From a plasmid: a stretch of DNA of 64,000 nucleotides. The translations under genes and the position numbers were made by a program. Below are positions 40,460-59,290 of this stretch, piece by piece. The notes under the pieces are model-generated. The model searched no databases. It had not been told where the DNA came from and was given only the letters and a program-made list of their open reading frames with translations. Numbering within the stretch: position 1 is the stretch's first letter; the number at the start of each line of letters is the position of its first letter. The DNA lies in sequence record NZ_CP012741.1; one strand, written 5' to 3'.

Positions 40460-41414
40460 TCAGTTGATCAGTGCTGACAGCTCTTGCTCTGACAAGCCTG
40501 TAGTTTCCGAGATCAACGCTTTATCGAGACCTGCGGCCAACATCTTTTTCGCGATAGCGACTTTGGCTTCTTGTTCACCTTCTTGACGGCCCTTTTGTAA
40601 ACCTTCTTGACGGCCCTTTTGTAAACCTTGCTGTAAACCTTGTTCGCGACCGCGCGCTTCTAATTGCTCTGCTACTGTCATGAATTTTTCCTCATGCTCT
40701 GGGACTTGCTTCGCCAAGGTTCGCATCAAATCTTCTAAATTCGACGTCTCCCCTACTCTCAGCAAATACTCCACTAAACTGTCTAACTGACTTGCTGTGA
40801 TTAAACGTTCTAACAACAGTGTAACCACTGTCTCTGTAAAATCCAATAAGTCTCTTTGTCGTACATGCTTTTGGACCAGCTCTAACAGTGCCACTCTCTT
40901 ATGCTGAATGATTTCATCATCCGGTATCACCGTTACATCCACCAAGGGAAAGTCCTGGCTATACAGAGCTTTCGCTATCTCAGGGTGGTCAAATTCATCC
41001 AGCCAATTGGTGCTGTATGGGTAAGGACTCGTTTGGCCATGATAGAACAGTAACGGCACCACTAAAGGGAGCGTCTCATTTCCCGCATCCAGGTGTTGTT
41101 TCATCGCTGCGATGGCATAACGCATCATCCGAAAGCCCATGTGTTTGTCTGGGCGACTTTGATGCTCGATGAGCGCATACACATACCCTACCCCACTTTC
41201 TGTTTCCATCGAGCACATCCGAATAATACGGCACTAACTCTTCTTCCAAAAATGAACTTGATTGGAGCTGGAGCGTATTGAGATTGCAGATTTTTTTGAT
41301 GTGCCCTGGTAAGTGTACATCGAGAAAGTCTCTCGCTGTATCTGGTACGGTCAGGAACGACTTAAACAATCCATCATGTATTGATGTTGGTGCCTTCACT
41401 GTACTTATCCCCAT
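40460..41414 (-). pseudogene. Rpn/YhgA-like (PDDEXK_7) recombination-promoting nuclease/transposase-like gene, frameshifted
   Basis: N-terminus HDGLFKSFLTVPDTARDFLDVHLP...YYSDVL in the frame of 41076-41414; the remainder, including the C-terminal QGLQKGRQEGLQKGRQEG repeats, in the frame of 40460-41218. Confidence 0.7.
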
Positions 41415-41624: not shown

Positions 41625-42395
41625 ATGAAAACAAAGATTATAGCCACTGCAAATCAAAAGGGAGGGGTTGGTAAAACCACGACCGTTATTAATCTAGGGG
41701 CTGAGCTAGCAAGACGGAAAAAGGTGCTTATTATTGACCTTGACCCGCAAGGAAACTGTTCAAAAACCTTAACTGCACAGCGTACTTTTCCATTTGAAGA
41801 AACTATAGCGGCTATGTTCGATAGACCAAAAGTTGTTTCGATAGCTGATTTGATTCGACCTGCTTTAGTACATAACTCTCAAATCGAGAACCTAGATCTG
41901 GTTCCTGCGGACTTCCAGTTGTCCCGTATCATTGAAACATCGCTGACCAAGATTAATCGTGAGCGTATCCTCGAAAAGCAATTAGCAAAGCTGGAGGGGA
42001 TTTATGACTTTGTTATTTTAGATACACCTCCGAATCTATCGCTTACAACGCTAAATGCTATTCAAGCATCCGATCTGATTTTGATTCCTGTCGATTCTGG
42101 TGCGTTTTCTCTGGATGGGATCTCTCCTCTTCTTGACGCTGTTTCTGAAATAAAAGACGAAGATGCACACTACCTTATATTGAGAAACGAGGTAGATTCT
42201 AGAAATTCGATCATTAATGAGTTTATTGATGAAGAGTTAGAAGTTGCACAAGATAGAGTACTACCTGTTTCTATTCGTAAATCAGAACATGTAGGCCAAG
42301 CTAATGCTGTTTCTGCTCCAGTGCGTTTCTATAAGTCAGGATCGCTAGTCAATAATGACTATCGCCAGTTAGCTCTATTTATTAATGATATGTAA
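41625..42395 (+). CDS. parA: ParA/Soj-family partition ATPase
   Basis: KGGVGKTTT Walker A; 256 aa. Confidence 0.85.
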   Translation: MKTKIIATANQKGGVGKTTTVINLGAELARRKKVLIIDLDPQGNCSKTLTAQRTFPFEETIAAMFDRPKVVSIADLIRPALVHNSQIENLDLVPADFQLSRIIETSLTKINRERILEKQLAKLEGIYDFVILDTPPNLSLTTLNAIQASDLILIPVDSGAFSLDGISPLLDAVSEIKDEDAHYLILRNEVDSRNSIINEFIDEELEVAQDRVLPVSIRKSEHVGQANAVSAPVRFYKSGSLVNNDYRQLALFINDM

Positions 42396-42411
42396 TACAT
42401 AGGTAATACAC

Positions 42412-42711
42412 ATGAGTAGGCTAAAAAATCATGGAGCTAGTACATCTATATCCGAATTTAACAATAAGGATAGAGGTAAACAGAGTGGAATCACCACAGT
42501 TAAGAAAAAGGTTACCACTTCATACAAAATCCCCCCTTTGACACTAAGAATGTCTCTCTCAGATAAGAAAGCCATTGGCGATTGGGTGGATGAATTGCAA
42601 GAGCTATCAGAGCGAAATGTCTCTGCCGCCAAGCTGTTTCGAGCGTTAGTCTCATATCGAGATAAGATAGATAATGAAGAGTTGATCGAACTTATTAATA
42701 AAATGAATTGA
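42412..42711 (+). CDS. Small partition adaptor / DNA-binding protein (ParB/ParG-like, 99 aa)
   Basis: Immediately downstream of parA; basic N-terminus. Confidence 0.5.
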   Translation: MSRLKNHGASTSISEFNNKDRGKQSGITTVKKKVTTSYKIPPLTLRMSLSDKKAIGDWVDELQELSERNVSAAKLFRALVSYRDKIDNEELIELINKMN

Positions 42712-42805
42712 TGTGTATTACCTATGTATTACATTGTCGCTATGCTGGTTTCTTAGTAATATGATTACGGTTTTTAGTGTATTACATGTGTAATACACGT
42801 ATTTT
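42707..42805. repeat. Downstream copies of the GTATTAC palindromes (tgtgtattacctatgtattaca; gtgtattacatgtgtaatacac)
   Basis: Same motif as the upstream cluster. Confidence 0.5.
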
Positions 42806-54450: not shown

Positions 54451-55200
54451 TTATAGTAGGTTTCGTTGCGCTTCTTTCCTCCTGTAACTTTCCCCTTGGC
54501 ATTGCAAGATTTTCGCGTGATGGATCAGTCTATCTATGGCTGCCACCGTCATCACTGTATTGTCGAACAGTTCATCCCACTCCTCGAACGATTGATTTGA
54601 TGTAATGATTAAGCTATATCGTTCATAGCGATGGGCTATTAGCTCGAACAGCACGCTTGTCTCCTCACTCGTTTTTTGGACATAACCTATATCATCTAAG
54701 ATAAGCACACTGTACTTATCCAGCTTCATTAAGGCTTCTGATAGTTTCAGCTCTTCCTTCGCTTGTTGAAGTTGCTGTACCAGTAAGTTTGCACTCATGA
54801 ACTTAACCCGCTGACCATGCTCGATCAGCTTGTATCCAAGCCCAGCAGCTAAATGCGTCTTGCCTAACCCACTGGCTCCGAACAGTAAGAGGTTGTCGCC
54901 CGTTTTCACCCATTCTCTATGGTTGGCTAAGTGCCACACTTGTCCTTTGTCTATCCCTCCCACCGCGGTAAAGTCATAGTTATCAAGGTACTTGCCCGCT
55001 GGAAGGTTGGATTCCTTTAAGTGGCGCTGCAAGCGCTTTTCTTCTCGGCTATCTAGCTCTAGTCGGCATAACTCAGCAAGGTAACGTTCTACCGACCAAC
55101 TTTGCTCGCGAGCCTTATCTGCCATTGGCTCCCATTGGGAGACAAGACTACTGAGGCGTAACGATTTGAGAAGAAGAGGGAGGATATGCTGCTCTGACAT
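54451..55200 (-). CDS. istB: IstB, IS21 helper ATPase
   Basis: Walker A GASGLGKTHLA; 249 aa. Confidence 0.85.
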   Translation of the reverse strand: MSEQHILPLLLKSLRLSSLVSQWEPMADKAREQSWSVERYLAELCRLELDSREEKRLQRHLKESNLPAGKYLDNYDFTAVGGIDKGQVWHLANHREWVKTGDNLLLFGASGLGKTHLAAGLGYKLIEHGQRVKFMSANLLVQQLQQAKEELKLSEALMKLDKYSVLILDDIGYVQKTSEETSVLFELIAHRYERYSLIITSNQSFEEWDELFDNTVMTVAAIDRLIHHAKILQCQGESYRRKEAQRNLL

Positions 55201-56732
55201 TAGTTTACCCCCTCTAAGATTTGTTGATAGCTCGACAGTCTGTGCTGCTCTACCTTAGGGCTCTCCGCCCAGCTTTCATCTTTTAAGAACCTATCTTCGC
55301 AGTCGAACAGTGTTGGTAGGCGGCCTATACGTATCCCATCAAGCACGAACCTGCCAACAGTATCTTCTCTCTCCGATTTGTTGGCGATATTCAATAATCT
55401 CACCATGTAGAGGCTTGCCTCATCCATCGTAAGATGCGTATCAACGTACTGCCAGATTTGGCGGTAGTCATCGCTAGGAAGCATCTGATCTCGCCACTGA
55501 CATCCCCTGAACGCTCGTGGCTTCTTCATTAAGGAGCCAATAATATGTCTGTAATCAATTTGATGCCCACGACGACAGGACTGGGTATGTACCCTCTCTA
55601 GACTTAAGGTGTGTTCATCATGGCAGTAGATTTCTAGTGTTTTGTCATAGAGATGAACACGGACGGTTCCGCCGATAAGGCGGGACGGCACTGAGTAAGT
55701 GACTCTCTTAAGTTGGATCGTACTTGTCGTCGAGACTTTCAGTACATGAACTGTGTAATTGACGCTGGCGAACTTTGGTAGTGGTTGTAATTGTCGCTGC
55801 TCGTCAATTAGAAGCGGCTTAGAGCGGCGATTACGTCGCTCAACGAGTTGTTCTACGAACAACTCGTACTCTTCTTTTGTGTTGAAGTCATAAGAGCCTC
55901 GTATTGCTAAGGCTTGGCGGACCTGATTTTTTAGGTGGTTATTCGCACTTTCTATCGCCCCATTCTCATGTGCGACACCGGTATTATTTTTCGTTGGCTT
56001 GAAGCCATAATGCATGGCAAGTTGTTGGAAGTTATCAGTAAACTGACGTTCACTGGTGTTATTTTTATACGCAGCACTTAAGCTGTCCGTTCTAACCTCA
56101 AGCGGAACACCACCTGAACGTTCAAAAGCCCCTTGTAGCCCCGTCGCAACCGCTGTAAAGCTTTCTCCACCATAAACAACCTCGGCATGGCTCCAGCCAC
56201 TGGCAGGTAAGCGATAATTGAACAGGCGATGCTCAAGCGTTTCACCTTGTATCGTGACGGTGAAATCAGCCCAGGTAAAATCCATGATCCCTTGCCGTCC
56301 AAACTCCTTTTCCTGTCGAAAGATCACCTCCTTATCTTCACCATGCAGAAGGCGCCATTTACGGACACGACGCTCTAACGTACGTCGATGTTTCGGTAAG
56401 AATACGTCGCTATGCTCTTCACATAAGTGATCGAAAATACCGACAGGGGTAATTGTCGCGCTTCGCTCAAGGAGCGGAACGACGACAGGCTCCCAAACTG
56501 CTTCAAGAGGGTCTTTTCGTGTTCGGTATTCTCTAGGTTTGAGTGGACCTAATTGTCGTTGGCCTGATTCAATGCGACGAGCAGAGCGCTCAGAGAAGCC
56601 AGCCTTAGCGGCAGAAGTGGTTTGTGTTTTGTCTTTACGATTAGCCATGTATAGCCTTATTTGTTGATCTGTAATTCGTTTTCCTGGCACAAAGCTTTCC
56701 AATAGAGAGTTTGTCCCAATGTAGCAGATCAA
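55200..56732 (-). CDS. istA: IstA, IS21 transposase
   Basis: 510 aa, DDE region, 1-nt overlap with istB. Confidence 0.85.
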   Translation of the reverse strand: MICYIGTNSLLESFVPGKRITDQQIRLYMANRKDKTQTTSAAKAGFSERSARRIESGQRQLGPLKPREYRTRKDPLEAVWEPVVVPLLERSATITPVGIFDHLCEEHSDVFLPKHRRTLERRVRKWRLLHGEDKEVIFRQEKEFGRQGIMDFTWADFTVTIQGETLEHRLFNYRLPASGWSHAEVVYGGESFTAVATGLQGAFERSGGVPLEVRTDSLSAAYKNNTSERQFTDNFQQLAMHYGFKPTKNNTGVAHENGAIESANNHLKNQVRQALAIRGSYDFNTKEEYELFVEQLVERRNRRSKPLLIDEQRQLQPLPKFASVNYTVHVLKVSTTSTIQLKRVTYSVPSRLIGGTVRVHLYDKTLEIYCHDEHTLSLERVHTQSCRRGHQIDYRHIIGSLMKKPRAFRGCQWRDQMLPSDDYRQIWQYVDTHLTMDEASLYMVRLLNIANKSEREDTVGRFVLDGIRIGRLPTLFDCEDRFLKDESWAESPKVEQHRLSSYQQILEGVN

Positions 56733-56781
56733 CCGGCCAATCTAATTGTCGCTGAACCGGTCAGGCTAATTGTCGCTCAAT

Positions 56782-57175: not shown

Positions 57176-57601
57176 TCAACAAAGTTCATTTCTTGCTGCT
57201 ATAGCCAAGAAATGACTTCTGTCTCGATAGAGGTCGCTATTCTCTACTTTACGATCGATTACCGCTAGTAACGATTCTGGTAGAGAAATATTGACCCTTT
57301 GGCTTTTTCCGCTGTATCTGCTTACGTCAATTTCTATCTGTAACCAAACATCACAAAAACGGTAGGCTTCATCTTCTCGATAAGCCAGTGCTCCTTGGTC
57401 TTCGAGTCCTAACACATCAAAGCCATCGGCAAGCATTTCTTCTAAAATACTTTCTATCGCTTCTGCTGAATGTGCCGCTATCTCTTTACTGCTATCTGAT
57501 GCGCTATAGCAGGAATAACGGTCATTACAAAGAGCTGGAACGACGATCCCGTAAGAGGAATCTTTATCTTTTGGTGTTTCTACACCCAATGTAAACCACA
57601 T
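57176..57601 (-). CDS. hicB: HicB-family antitoxin; start adjusted to MWFTLGVE with SD ggaggt
   Basis: MWFTLGVE...GIVVPAL RNase-H-like N-domain; C-terminal RHH. Confidence 0.75.
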   Translation of the reverse strand: MWFTLGVETPKDKDSSYGIVVPALCNDRYSCYSASDSSKEIAAHSAEAIESILEEMLADGFDVLGLEDQGALAYREDEAYRFCDVWLQIEIDVSRYSGKSQRVNISLPESLLAVIDRKVENSDLYRDRSHFLAIAARNELC

Positions 57602-57622
57602 CGTTACCTCCAAGTGCGCGGG

Positions 57623-57805
57623 CTAGATGCCCGCGTCTTTTTTGATAGAACGTACTGTGCCTATTGGTAAGGAGCCTTTCGGGTGAGGCACCGGAAATTT
57701 TTTACCAGAGATTGGAGATTTCCAGATCTGGTGACTTCCTTTGCCATGCCTTACAAACTCACATCCTGCGGCGAGTAGTTCATCTATTAGGTCTTTAGAT
57801 TTCAT
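57623..57805 (-). CDS. hicA: HicA mRNA-interferase toxin
   Basis: 60 aa; GKGSHQIW ... PHPKGSLPIGTVRSI YcfA/HicA pattern. Confidence 0.75.
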   Translation of the reverse strand: MKSKDLIDELLAAGCEFVRHGKGSHQIWKSPISGKKFPVPHPKGSLPIGTVRSIKKDAGI

Positions 57806-57988
57806 ATTGCCTCCGACCTAACAAGCATTATACACACGCGTGTGTATAATGTAAAGTTCGTCTGTTATATCTATTCTAAGTTGATTTATTTGTCATTTAA
57901 CATGCTGTTTTTATTCAATAAAAACAGCATGAGACAAACCATGAATCTATAGAATATTTTTCTTGAACTCTTAGTTATTCAGCGTATA

Positions 57989-58102
57989 GTAATTGAGTAA
58001 TTGAGTAATTGAGTAATTGAGTAATTGAGTAATTGAGTAATTGAGTAATTGAGTAATTGAGTAATTGAGTAATTGAGTAATTGAGTAATTGAGTAATTGA
58101 GT
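57989..58102 (+). repeat. Tandem array of 14 copies of GTAATTGA (TAATTGAG unit) immediately upstream of parA
   Basis: Counted directly; runs into the parA start codon region. Confidence 0.9.
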
Positions 58103-58738
58103 ATGGCTAATATTATTGCAGTTTTGAATCCGAAAGGTGGTGCAGGAAAAACCACCATTGCTTTACATTTATCTAGAGCGTTGAAGGAACACGGCTCTGT
58201 TCTTATGGTTGATTCTGACCCTCAAGGATCAGCACGAGACTGGGCTGAACAAGGAGGTGGTGATTCTTTTCCTATTGTTGGAGTTGACCGAGCAGGGGCA
58301 CTTAAAAGTACGATACAGCAAATAGCGCCTTCGTATGACTGGGTTGTTATTGATGGTGCAGCTAAGCTTGAAGAAATGGCCGCTCATGCTGTGAGTATTG
58401 CTGAGCTTATCATAATTCCAGTGCAGCCATCCCCATTAGATCTGTGGGCTTGTGAAACTTTAGTTAGTCAAATTAAGCAACGTCAAATTATTACTGACGG
58501 TATTCCGACCGCTGCATTCCAAATCTCCAGAGCTAAAAAGGGGACGACTTTGGCAAAGGATGTTCGAAAAGTTGTTGCTGAGTATGATCTTCCTTTGCTT
58601 GATGGAAATATCCATGATCGCACCGTTTTTGCTAAATCCTTATCAGAGGGCTCTACTGCTATCGATGTTGAACCTAATGGTGCAGCGGCGTTTGAAATTC
58701 GTCACTTAGTGAAGCAAATAGTTAAAGGGTTTGAGTGA
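58103..58738 (+). CDS. parA: Small ParA partition ATPase (type Ib-like, ~212 aa)
   Basis: KGGAGKTT Walker A; no N-terminal HTH; ATG start at MANIIAVLN. Confidence 0.85.
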   Translation: MANIIAVLNPKGGAGKTTIALHLSRALKEHGSVLMVDSDPQGSARDWAEQGGGDSFPIVGVDRAGALKSTIQQIAPSYDWVVIDGAAKLEEMAAHAVSIAELIIIPVQPSPLDLWACETLVSQIKQRQIITDGIPTAAFQISRAKKGTTLAKDVRKVVAEYDLPLLDGNIHDRTVFAKSLSEGSTAIDVEPNGAAAFEIRHLVKQIVKGFE

Positions 58739-58958
58739 AATGTTGAAGATAAAAAAAACAGGGGAAGGGCACCAACATCCACAAATAGAGGAGATTAAGA
58801 AGGTGATAACTAAAGAAGCTACAAAACGTTTAAATGCAGAACTACCCAAGAGTTTTTATTTGCAAGTTAAAAATTTCGCCGCTGAAAACGATATGTCTAT
58901 CACCGACTTAACTAAGAAAGCCTTGACAGAGTTTATGTCTCAATCAAAAATTGAGTAA
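58731..58958 (+). CDS. ParG-like ribbon-helix-helix centromere-binding protein (75 aa)
   Basis: C-terminal RHH-like PKSFYLQVKNFAAENDMSITDLTKKALTEFM; overlaps the parA stop; its stop lies inside the first downstream repeat. Confidence 0.6.
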   Translation: MSEMLKIKKTGEGHQHPQIEEIKKVITKEATKRLNAELPKSFYLQVKNFAAENDMSITDLTKKALTEFMSQSKIE

Positions 58959-59052
58959 TTGAGTAATTGAGTAATTGAGTAATTGAGTAATTGAGTAATT
59001 GAGTAATTGAGTAATTGAGTAATTGAGTAATTGAGTAATTGAGTAATTGAGT
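58951..59052 (+). repeat. Second TAATTGAG tandem array (~12.7 copies) immediately downstream of the par operon, same orientation
   Basis: Counted directly. Confidence 0.9.
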
Positions 59053-59113
59053 CCTCTCAGTGCAATCGCCAAATCCCACTGAGAGGGCATCCGACCCTAT
59101 AGGAGAGACCAAG

Positions 59114-59290
59114 ATGCAAGTGAATTGTAGCATTAACCACACCCTAAACCAAAGCGCTACTAACGAAGAACTCGATATGTTGCTCAGTCTGATGAAGCGC
59201 AACTACTTTCGTCCCAACCAGCAAGAAGTGATTGCTGCCTTTGTTGGTCGACAAGCCATTAAAAACTTCCTGGAAGAGTTCGAGCATTAA
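59114..59290 (+). CDS. small hypothetical protein (58 aa; start adjusted to MQVNCS with SD ggagag)
   Basis: ORF track 59060-59290. Confidence 0.3.
   Translation: MQVNCSINHTLNQSATNEELDMLLSLMKRNYFRPNQQEVIAAFVGRQAIKNFLEEFEH

Follow-up and report, generated by a model that had tools for sequence, protein, structure and literature searches.

The 64,000 nucleotides considered here (plasmid record NZ_CP012741.1; the window in what follows) contain a short two-gene locus in which the genes for a ParA-family ATPase and a small ribbon-helix-helix (RHH) protein lie between two tandem arrays of the 8-bp unit TAATTGAG, delimited with Tandem Repeats Finder (TRF). The coordinates of these and of the surrounding features are collected in Table 1. 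The region is 98-99% identical to that of the Vibrio vulnificus plasmids pYJ016 (NC_005128.1) and pVv180806 (NZ_CP044208.1), both MOBF/MPF_F conjugative plasmids, and the cassette is carried by a pYJ016-like F-type conjugative plasmid of this species. On these two plasmids the products are annotated as "ParA family partition ATPase" and "hypothetical protein", and parA is the sole annotated partition gene of pYJ016.

Table 1. Position of the partition cassette, its repeats and neighbouring features in the window
Feature	Position	Strand	Remarks
Upstream array	57988-58103	+	TRF period 8, 14.5 copies, 100% matches, score 232; proposed operator and centromere site 1, also parA 5' leader
Downstream array	58949-59052	+	TRF period 8, 13.0 copies, 100% matches, score 208; proposed centromere site 2
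parA/parF-like gene	58103-58738	+	211-aa Walker-type partition ATPase without N-terminal DNA-binding domain
parG-like gene	58740-58958	+	72 aa; starts 1 nt past the parA stop; C-terminal RHH
Candidate sigma-70 promoter	57963-57990	+	TTGAAC, 16-bp spacer, TATAGT; predicted by consensus scan
Hairpin	59051-59088	+	12-bp stem, conserved loop GCAATCGCCAAA; directly after the downstream array
hicAB toxin-antitoxin pair	57176-57805	divergent	upstream of the par cassette
58-aa ORF (MQVNCSINHTLNQ...)	59114-59290		downstream, after the hairpin and its own Shine-Dalgarno sequence
Second partition-like cassette	41625-42711		256-aa ParA-like ATPase (41625-42395), then 99-aa ORF (42412-42711)

The repeat arrays

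Both arrays outscore by far every other tandem repeat that TRF finds in the window. An exact search gives 14 contiguous copies of TAATTGAG at 57990-58101 and 12 at 58956-59051, all on the + strand, and GAGT boxes in 8-bp register number 14 upstream and 13 downstream. The counts (14 and about 12.7 copies), coordinates and common orientation given in an initial annotation of this DNA were therefore essentially right. Of the 29 occurrences of TAATTGAG in the window, against 2.8 +/- 1.5 (maximum 7) in shuffled sequences, 26 fall inside the two arrays that flank the genes; the other three are at about chance level, and the window does not hold the many scattered arrays of the short tandemly repeated repetitive (STRR) sequences. 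Read on the minus strand, the upstream array is a run of 14 ACTC boxes with AATT spacers, the unit being ACTCAATT.

The arrays and the genes interlock. As the initial annotation had it, the upstream array runs into the start of parA, the last GAGT standing directly before the ATG at 58103 (..TAATTGAGTATG; GAGTATG), and the downstream array contains the stop codon of the RHH gene: the TAA at 58956-58958 is the TAA of its first full unit. Since the array has stop codons in all three + strand frames, homologues that enter it in different frames still terminate at once, and their C-termini vary accordingly with the frame of entry (..KIE, ..KLSN, ..PKD). Phase variation was rejected on the same ground, there being no frame to switch when every + frame is closed and the 8-bp steps fall outside the coding sequence. 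The arrays were also considered, and rejected, as the ends of a mobile element. A literature search found no description of them.

The ATPase and its RHH partner

The product of parA matches ParF of plasmid TP228 in the PDB (4dzz) over residues 4-211 [E 6.9e-27] and is 33% identical, over 206-211 amino acids, to the ParF protein of a TP228-like Salmonella plasmid [BLASTP, E 2e-33]. It scores 232 bits against the NCBIfam model NF041546 (ParA_partition; cutoff 180), and its Pfam matches are AAA_31/CbiA. The deviant Walker A motif KGGAGKTT is N-terminal (residues 11-18) and there is no extra DNA-binding domain, which makes this the type Ib form of ParA. Judged by these alignments, the ATPase is a ParF homologue over its full length.

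The initial annotation was correct in pairing a small ParA with an RHH protein and too generous in giving the latter 75 residues, a reading that needs the in-frame TTG at 58731. The RefSeq annotation of identical plasmids favours the 72 residues that begin at the ATG at 58740, and the lysine-rich sequence MLKIKK is the invariant N-terminus of all RHH homologues. A word-indexed search returned 12 close relatives from Vibrio; the wider family became visible in an exhaustive search of representatives with a hidden Markov model, which gave 143 clusters, mostly of proteins of 65-80 amino acids. The single PDB sequence match of the 72-residue protein is a CopG-family RHH protein (9kkd), at a marginal E of 0.05. 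Profile comparison with ParG by hhalign gave a probability of 83.5% with an alignment of 13 sequences and of 95.9% [E 5e-9] with one of 64 members, with the RHH domain in register. When these 64 proteins were scanned singly, ParG (PF09274) was the commonest Pfam match (15/64), the rest being nearly all RHH families; the Omega_Repress model was touched by one.

An AlphaFold2 model of the protein (mean predicted local distance difference test score 66; 80-87 in the helices) has residues 1-28 disordered and helices at 37-49 and 54-69. The tail and the beta-alpha-alpha arrangement, as modelled, are the layout of ParG. Nearly all the top Foldseek matches in the PDB are RHH proteins, superimposed with a root-mean-square deviation of about 2 A over 36-40 residues at insignificant E-values. 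The predicted ribbon, KRLNAELP, may be set beside the ribbon KRVNVNFD of ParG (PMC3413123); its residues R30 and N32 are near-invariant across the family and common to ParG. On the profile, the model and the ribbon taken together, the small protein appears to be a divergent ParG-like RHH protein with a disordered, lysine-rich N-terminal tail.

The repeat unit as a ParG-type site

Read in register on the minus strand, TAATTGAG is ACTC-AATT, that is, an ACTC box followed by a 4-bp AT-rich spacer. In TP228 the operator OF and the centromere parH consist respectively of 8 and 12 variant 5'-ACTC-3' boxes with regular 4-bp AT-rich spacing; one ParG dimer binds each box, centromere activity and affinity increase with the number of boxes, and a synthetic parH with all boxes in the same orientation is a proficient centromere (PMC3130281). 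The 20-mer AATTACTCAATTACTCAATT, a test oligonucleotide in a study of ParF (PMC5389482), equals two and a half units of the present array. By its sequence, then, each 8-bp unit should be one ParG-type site in idealised form. The likeness to the short repeats of parH drawn in the initial annotation thus extends to both box and periodicity, and the 8-bp unit, which had been set apart from them, is no departure.

Promoter, leader and 3' hairpin

The predicted -10 of the candidate promoter overlaps the first bases of the upstream array. In seven lineages, otherwise unalike in the sequence ahead of the array, a -35/-10 pair spaced by 16-17 bp directly adjoins the first unit. In TP228, likewise, the putative -10 of the parFG promoter is followed by the eight OF boxes (PMC3413123). 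Were the predicted promoter used, transcription would start within the first repeats and the whole upstream array would be 5' leader. Because the V. vulnificus array runs into the ATG, the only Shine-Dalgarno-like element there is the GAG of the last unit but one; a GAGG linker precedes parA in other lineages.

The hairpin behind the downstream array has a minimum free energy of -22.7 kcal/mol (z -2.8), and in five sequences its stem covaries at three pairs while the loop is conserved. As it lacks a T-run it is not a classical intrinsic terminator; it is possibly the 3' end of the par transcript, as a terminator or stabiliser, and the boundary of the cassette.

Phased boxes in homologous cassettes

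Homologous cassettes were taken from plasmid records, assemblies and metagenomes, and GAGT/ACTC boxes with a neighbour exactly 8 bp away were counted from -200 to +3 of parA and from -40 to +250 of the RHH stop. The upstream and downstream counts were 14 and 13 in the window, 7 and 7 in V. tasmaniensis, 15 and 11 in V. parahaemolyticus, 11 and 9 in V. mediterranei, 6 and 4 in Pleionea, 4 and 4 in the GC-rich alphaproteobacterium Salipiger, and 4 and 2 (L013) and 8 and 3 (L009, in mixed orientation) in two metagenomes; Acinetobacter sp. MB5 has five upstream, five at the parA/RHH junction and ten downstream. Shuffled controls had at most 0.06 phased boxes on average (maximum 2), and the coding regions are free of them in eight of nine cassettes, the exception being the junction cluster of Acinetobacter. 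In all, nine lineages, among them Vibrio, Enterovibrio, Acinetobacter, Pleionea, Salipiger and metagenomes, have boxes on both sides, ahead of parA and where the RHH gene ends. Perfect tandem arrays are found in Vibrio, Enterovibrio and at the downstream site of Acinetobacter. The distant relatives have few boxes with variable AT-rich spacers in both orientations, in the style of the TP228 OF operator (GAGTaattACTCatttGAGTtcatACTCatatACTCaaatGAGTaaaaGAGTatatGAGTatg in L009 is an example).

A TP228-like plasmid counted in this manner has seven strictly phased boxes upstream, together with degenerate ones, and none downstream, so that the downstream site is a real difference between the present subfamily and the paradigm. 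The two-centromere architecture that the initial annotation had recognised is accordingly shared with pB171 par2 in its layout and not with plasmids of the TP228 kind.

Other cassettes annotated as ParG differ: that of Proteus has the unit ACAC+ATAA with 8-bp phasing, and that of Aeromonas has palindromes instead. A code relating ribbon residues to boxes was sought, and no clean rule emerged, since R-x-N is retained in the Proteus ParG, whose boxes are ACAC, and the Aeromonas protein, with K-x-Q, goes with no ACTC boxes.

In Acinetobacter sp. MB5 the rep-parA-RHH cassette with its box clusters (L042 2560-3830) lies on a 40-kb contig of high coverage (L039, L042). The perfect downstream array has nine units in inverted orientation and lies 140 bp past the stop. 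A further array of six units (L039 4653-4700) abuts the ATG of an open reading frame (ORF) starting MRTLTRQKYNKVMGELAKLNGVS, which we take to resemble a capsid protein of the P2 GpN type. Possibly the contig is a phage-plasmid and its RHH protein has other genes under control as well.

Variation in copy number and arrays elsewhere

The initial annotation had recommended comparing repeat number between isolates, and near-identical finished plasmids do differ: there are 11 full units upstream and 12 downstream in pYJ016, 14 and 12 in the window, and 18 and 14 in pVv180806. Unit number is the only difference between the arrays of these 98-99% identical plasmids, and the arrays stay perfect. Ten further assemblies with the identical RHH protein have 4-13 units upstream and 6-15 downstream, numbers that are only indicative because two of the ten drafts have runs of N inside an array. 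This pattern of variation is that expected of a slippage-prone microsatellite selected to remain a binding site.

Three consecutive copies of TAATTGAG were also sought in one genome per species. At least 120 stretches matched, which gives no basis for counting the par-linked arrays; among the matches listed, most are short arrays without ParA nearby, in Chloroflexota, Bacteroidota, Acidobacteriota and cyanobacteria. Two arrays stand at chromosomal intergenic sites: one of 15 units, with genes converging on it, in Undibacterium, and one of 6 units, after narL, in a Vibrio. A scan of viral contigs gave three matches, none with ParA. Among the matches listed (L018-L137), arrays of 3-6 units are dispersed many times per genome, in Patescibacteria also, and are often mixed with TAATTGGG/TAATTTGG variants or trailed by an inverted copy; in one metagenome-assembled genome of Bacteroidaceae there are over 25 sites, with many of them at the ends of contigs. 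These dispersed short arrays look like a separate phenomenon akin to the STRR sequences of cyanobacteria.

Proposed mechanism

The homology of the ATPase to ParF, its ParG-like partner, the ParG-type repeat unit and the two-sided boxes of the relatives all support the assignment to type Ib already made in the initial annotation. We estimate at about 0.85 the probability that a complete cassette of type Ib, akin to ParF/ParG, is present here, in which the arrays, coated by the RHH protein, would act as operator and as centromeres. RHH dimers, one per 8-bp box, would coat both arrays cooperatively, up to about 14 dimers on the upstream and 13 on the downstream one. The coated upstream array, situated directly past the -10 and covering the leader as far as the ATG, would repress parA-parG (autoregulation), and both coated arrays would serve as centromeres. 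By analogy with the tail of ParG (PMC5016525), the lysine-rich N-terminal tail would recruit and stimulate the nucleoid-associated ParF-like ATPase, which would position the plasmid copies before division.

The perfection of the arrays together with their variable copy number is taken as a sign of homogenisation. Slippage or unequal exchange would have made uniform an originally degenerate cluster of boxes in mixed orientation, of the sort that persists in the metagenomic, Pleionea and Salipiger relatives, and every slipped unit would remain a consensus site.

Several observations weigh against this assignment. The 72-residue protein has no significant match in Pfam or NCBIfam, missing the Pfam ParG model (no match to PF09274 at E <= 0.1) and all RHH models; in pairwise alignment with ParG (1p94) only 20% of its residues are identical, at E 0.001 and with the RHH domains in register; and the fold matches carry little statistical weight, the domain being tiny. 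The promoter match is weak when taken alone, since the five consensus matches in the region equal the expectation from shuffling. An array is not in itself diagnostic, as repeats of TAATTGAG occur without par genes. Two perfect direct repeats of about 100 bp, 850 bp apart, should be recombinogenic, and the operon could be deleted between them. Finally, the plasmid may have two par systems (the second cassette of Table 1 encodes an ATPase 23% identical to the first, E 5e-8), in which case the present one need not be its sole partition system.

Comparison with known partition systems

The closest parallel is parF-parG-parH of TP228. The ATPases are homologous over their full length, each is paired with a small RHH protein whose N-terminal tail is flexible, and the sites are ACTC boxes with a 4-bp AT-rich spacer and 8-bp periodicity that extend from just past the -10 to the first gene, with about 12-20 boxes in all. 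The boxes of TP228 are degenerate and in mixed orientation, whereas here they are identical and in one orientation, and polymorphic in number; the second array, overlapping a stop codon, has no phased counterpart in TP228-like plasmids; and the RHH protein is too divergent for the Pfam ParG model.

In pB171 par2, likewise of type Ib, the gene order is parC1-parA-parB-parC2 (PMC4270457). Two clusters of short direct repeats flank a small ParA and a small ParB, as they do here. The pB171 repeats are reportedly of 6 bp and not perfectly tandem, and its ParB is said to be of a different RHH lineage. In the delta/omega system of pSM19035, again of type Ib, the omega protein, also of the RHH kind, coats contiguous 7-bp heptads in arrays of 7-10 that act as operators and centromeres at several sites (PMC5016525). 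An RHH protein on contiguous short repeats with a dual role as operator and centromere would, by analogy, be common to both systems; in pSM19035 the unit is 7 bp instead of 8, the delta and omega genes are in separate operons and the host is a Firmicute.

If the assignment is right, a function can be proposed for a "hypothetical protein" and two repeat arrays on conjugative plasmids of a human and fish pathogen, and the recognition code of ParG (an ACTC box in 8-bp phasing) would extend to a divergent subfamily in Alpha- and Gammaproteobacteria. It would not overturn the current understanding of partition, this being a system of a familiar sort, if an unusually tidy one, with two mildly interesting features. 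The first is that a second site is conserved where the RHH gene ends, over its stop codon, a link between the ParFG paradigm and the two-centromere layout of pB171 par2. The second is a natural "idealised parH": the arrays are in effect the all-direct, all-consensus parH that was earlier made synthetically, and hence would offer clean material for structural and single-molecule studies of RHH coating and ParF recruitment.

Alternative interpretations

It is doubtful that the perfect, hypervariable arrays go beyond this and form a tunable centromere and operator, in which slippage alters the number of RHH sites on each side. If they did, frequent slippage would tune repression, the size of the segrosome and the incompatibility of sister plasmids that share a cell. 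Lying as direct repeats on either side, the arrays would also ease the loss or exchange of whole par cassettes, and would thereby explain the presence of three unrelated cassettes at one backbone position in sister Vibrio plasmids. On this reading there would also be a rule for the whole subfamily, by which the gene for a centromere-binding protein ends inside its own binding site.

We consider it quite unlikely that the upstream array alone is centromere and operator, and that the downstream one is a regulatory or insulating element (a roadblock, or the end of the transcript before the 58-amino acid gene) or a reservoir that titrates the RHH protein. Such a division of labour would agree with TP228, whose sites are all upstream and sufficient, with the succession of downstream array, conserved hairpin and Shine-Dalgarno sequence of the next gene, and with the position of the perfect Acinetobacter array, inverted and well past the stop behind a hairpin. 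Downstream boxes are, however, found at the same place in nine lineages, including L004, L005 and L009, in which neither the downstream gene nor the hairpin is conserved, and pB171 par2 reportedly uses both of its flanking sites. In TP228, moreover, any sufficiently long cluster of boxes acts as a centromere (PMC3130281), which also speaks for a centromeric downstream array.

A neutral origin, the arrays being STRR-like microsatellites expanded from short seeds with no role for their length or perfection, is highly improbable. It draws on the arrays of 3-17 copies that the same 8-mer forms in unrelated genomes with no par genes nearby, and on the instability of copy number between near-identical plasmids. 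Yet the seed is the ParG-type box itself, every cassette with the identical RHH protein has at least four units on both sides, and arrays or degenerate boxes stand at the same two gene-relative positions in every relative examined, including the GC-rich Salipiger, where AT-rich boxes stand out.

Least credible of all are replication iterons, copy-control or incompatibility repeats, and substrates for cassette excision and exchange: the cassette is near the putative replication region of pYJ016, direct repeats flank its genes and different par cassettes occupy the same position in sister plasmids, but the contiguous 8-bp units are unlike iterons, which are about 17-22 bp long and spaced, the boxes accompany the ParA/RHH pair beside no fewer than four unrelated kinds of Rep (including Rep_3/RPA, RepA and the pYJ016 type), which argues against iterons, and exchange between the arrays would strip the plasmid of par and offer no obvious route of re-insertion; neither circular nor solo-array derivatives of these plasmids were seen.

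Neighbouring genes and other repeats

The ORF of 58 amino acids that follows the hairpin has no family match; at least 46 other Vibrio plasmids carry it, with 81-97% nucleotide identity. In the sister plasmids pC4602-1 and V. harveyi pvh4 (L139 and L140) it follows two unrelated cassettes of a ParA and a partner, so that one par cassette appears to have replaced another at a single place in the backbone. Upstream of its parA, the alternative cassette of pC4602-1 carries four TAGCTAGCTA-centred palindromes (1290-1385), and a fifth overlaps the stop of the partner gene (2435-2455); here again there are sites at both ends, the last in the 3' end of a gene. Further downstream of the par cassette in the window is a 359-amino acid Fic-domain protein (59964-61043).

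On the upstream side, a perfect 13-bp inverted repeat (CATGCTGTTTTTA ttcaa TAAAAACAGCATG; 57901-57931) lies between the promoter region of hicA and the par promoter. A second palindrome, TATACACACGCGTGTGTATA (about 57829-57848), coincides in part with the predicted hicAB promoter and probably serves as the HicB operator. Just upstream of hicB an ORF of 510 amino acids on the minus strand (55200-56777) resembles the IS21-family transposase IstA; it has a 24-bp sequence repeated twice (56731-56777) at its 5' end and is absent from the corresponding position in pYJ016 and pVv180806.

The second partition-like cassette adjoins two resolvase/recombinase genes and has 11-bp repeats at 42388-42410 and 42777-42797. 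An ORF of 252 amino acids on the minus strand (40460-41218) contains, in its 3' part, perfect tandem repeats of 24 bp (2.2 copies) and 12 bp (40577-40642), with QGLQKGRQEG as the repeat in the product; a similar 12-bp repeat occurs in an Rpn-family nuclease/transposase gene of pC4602-1 (L139 398-460).

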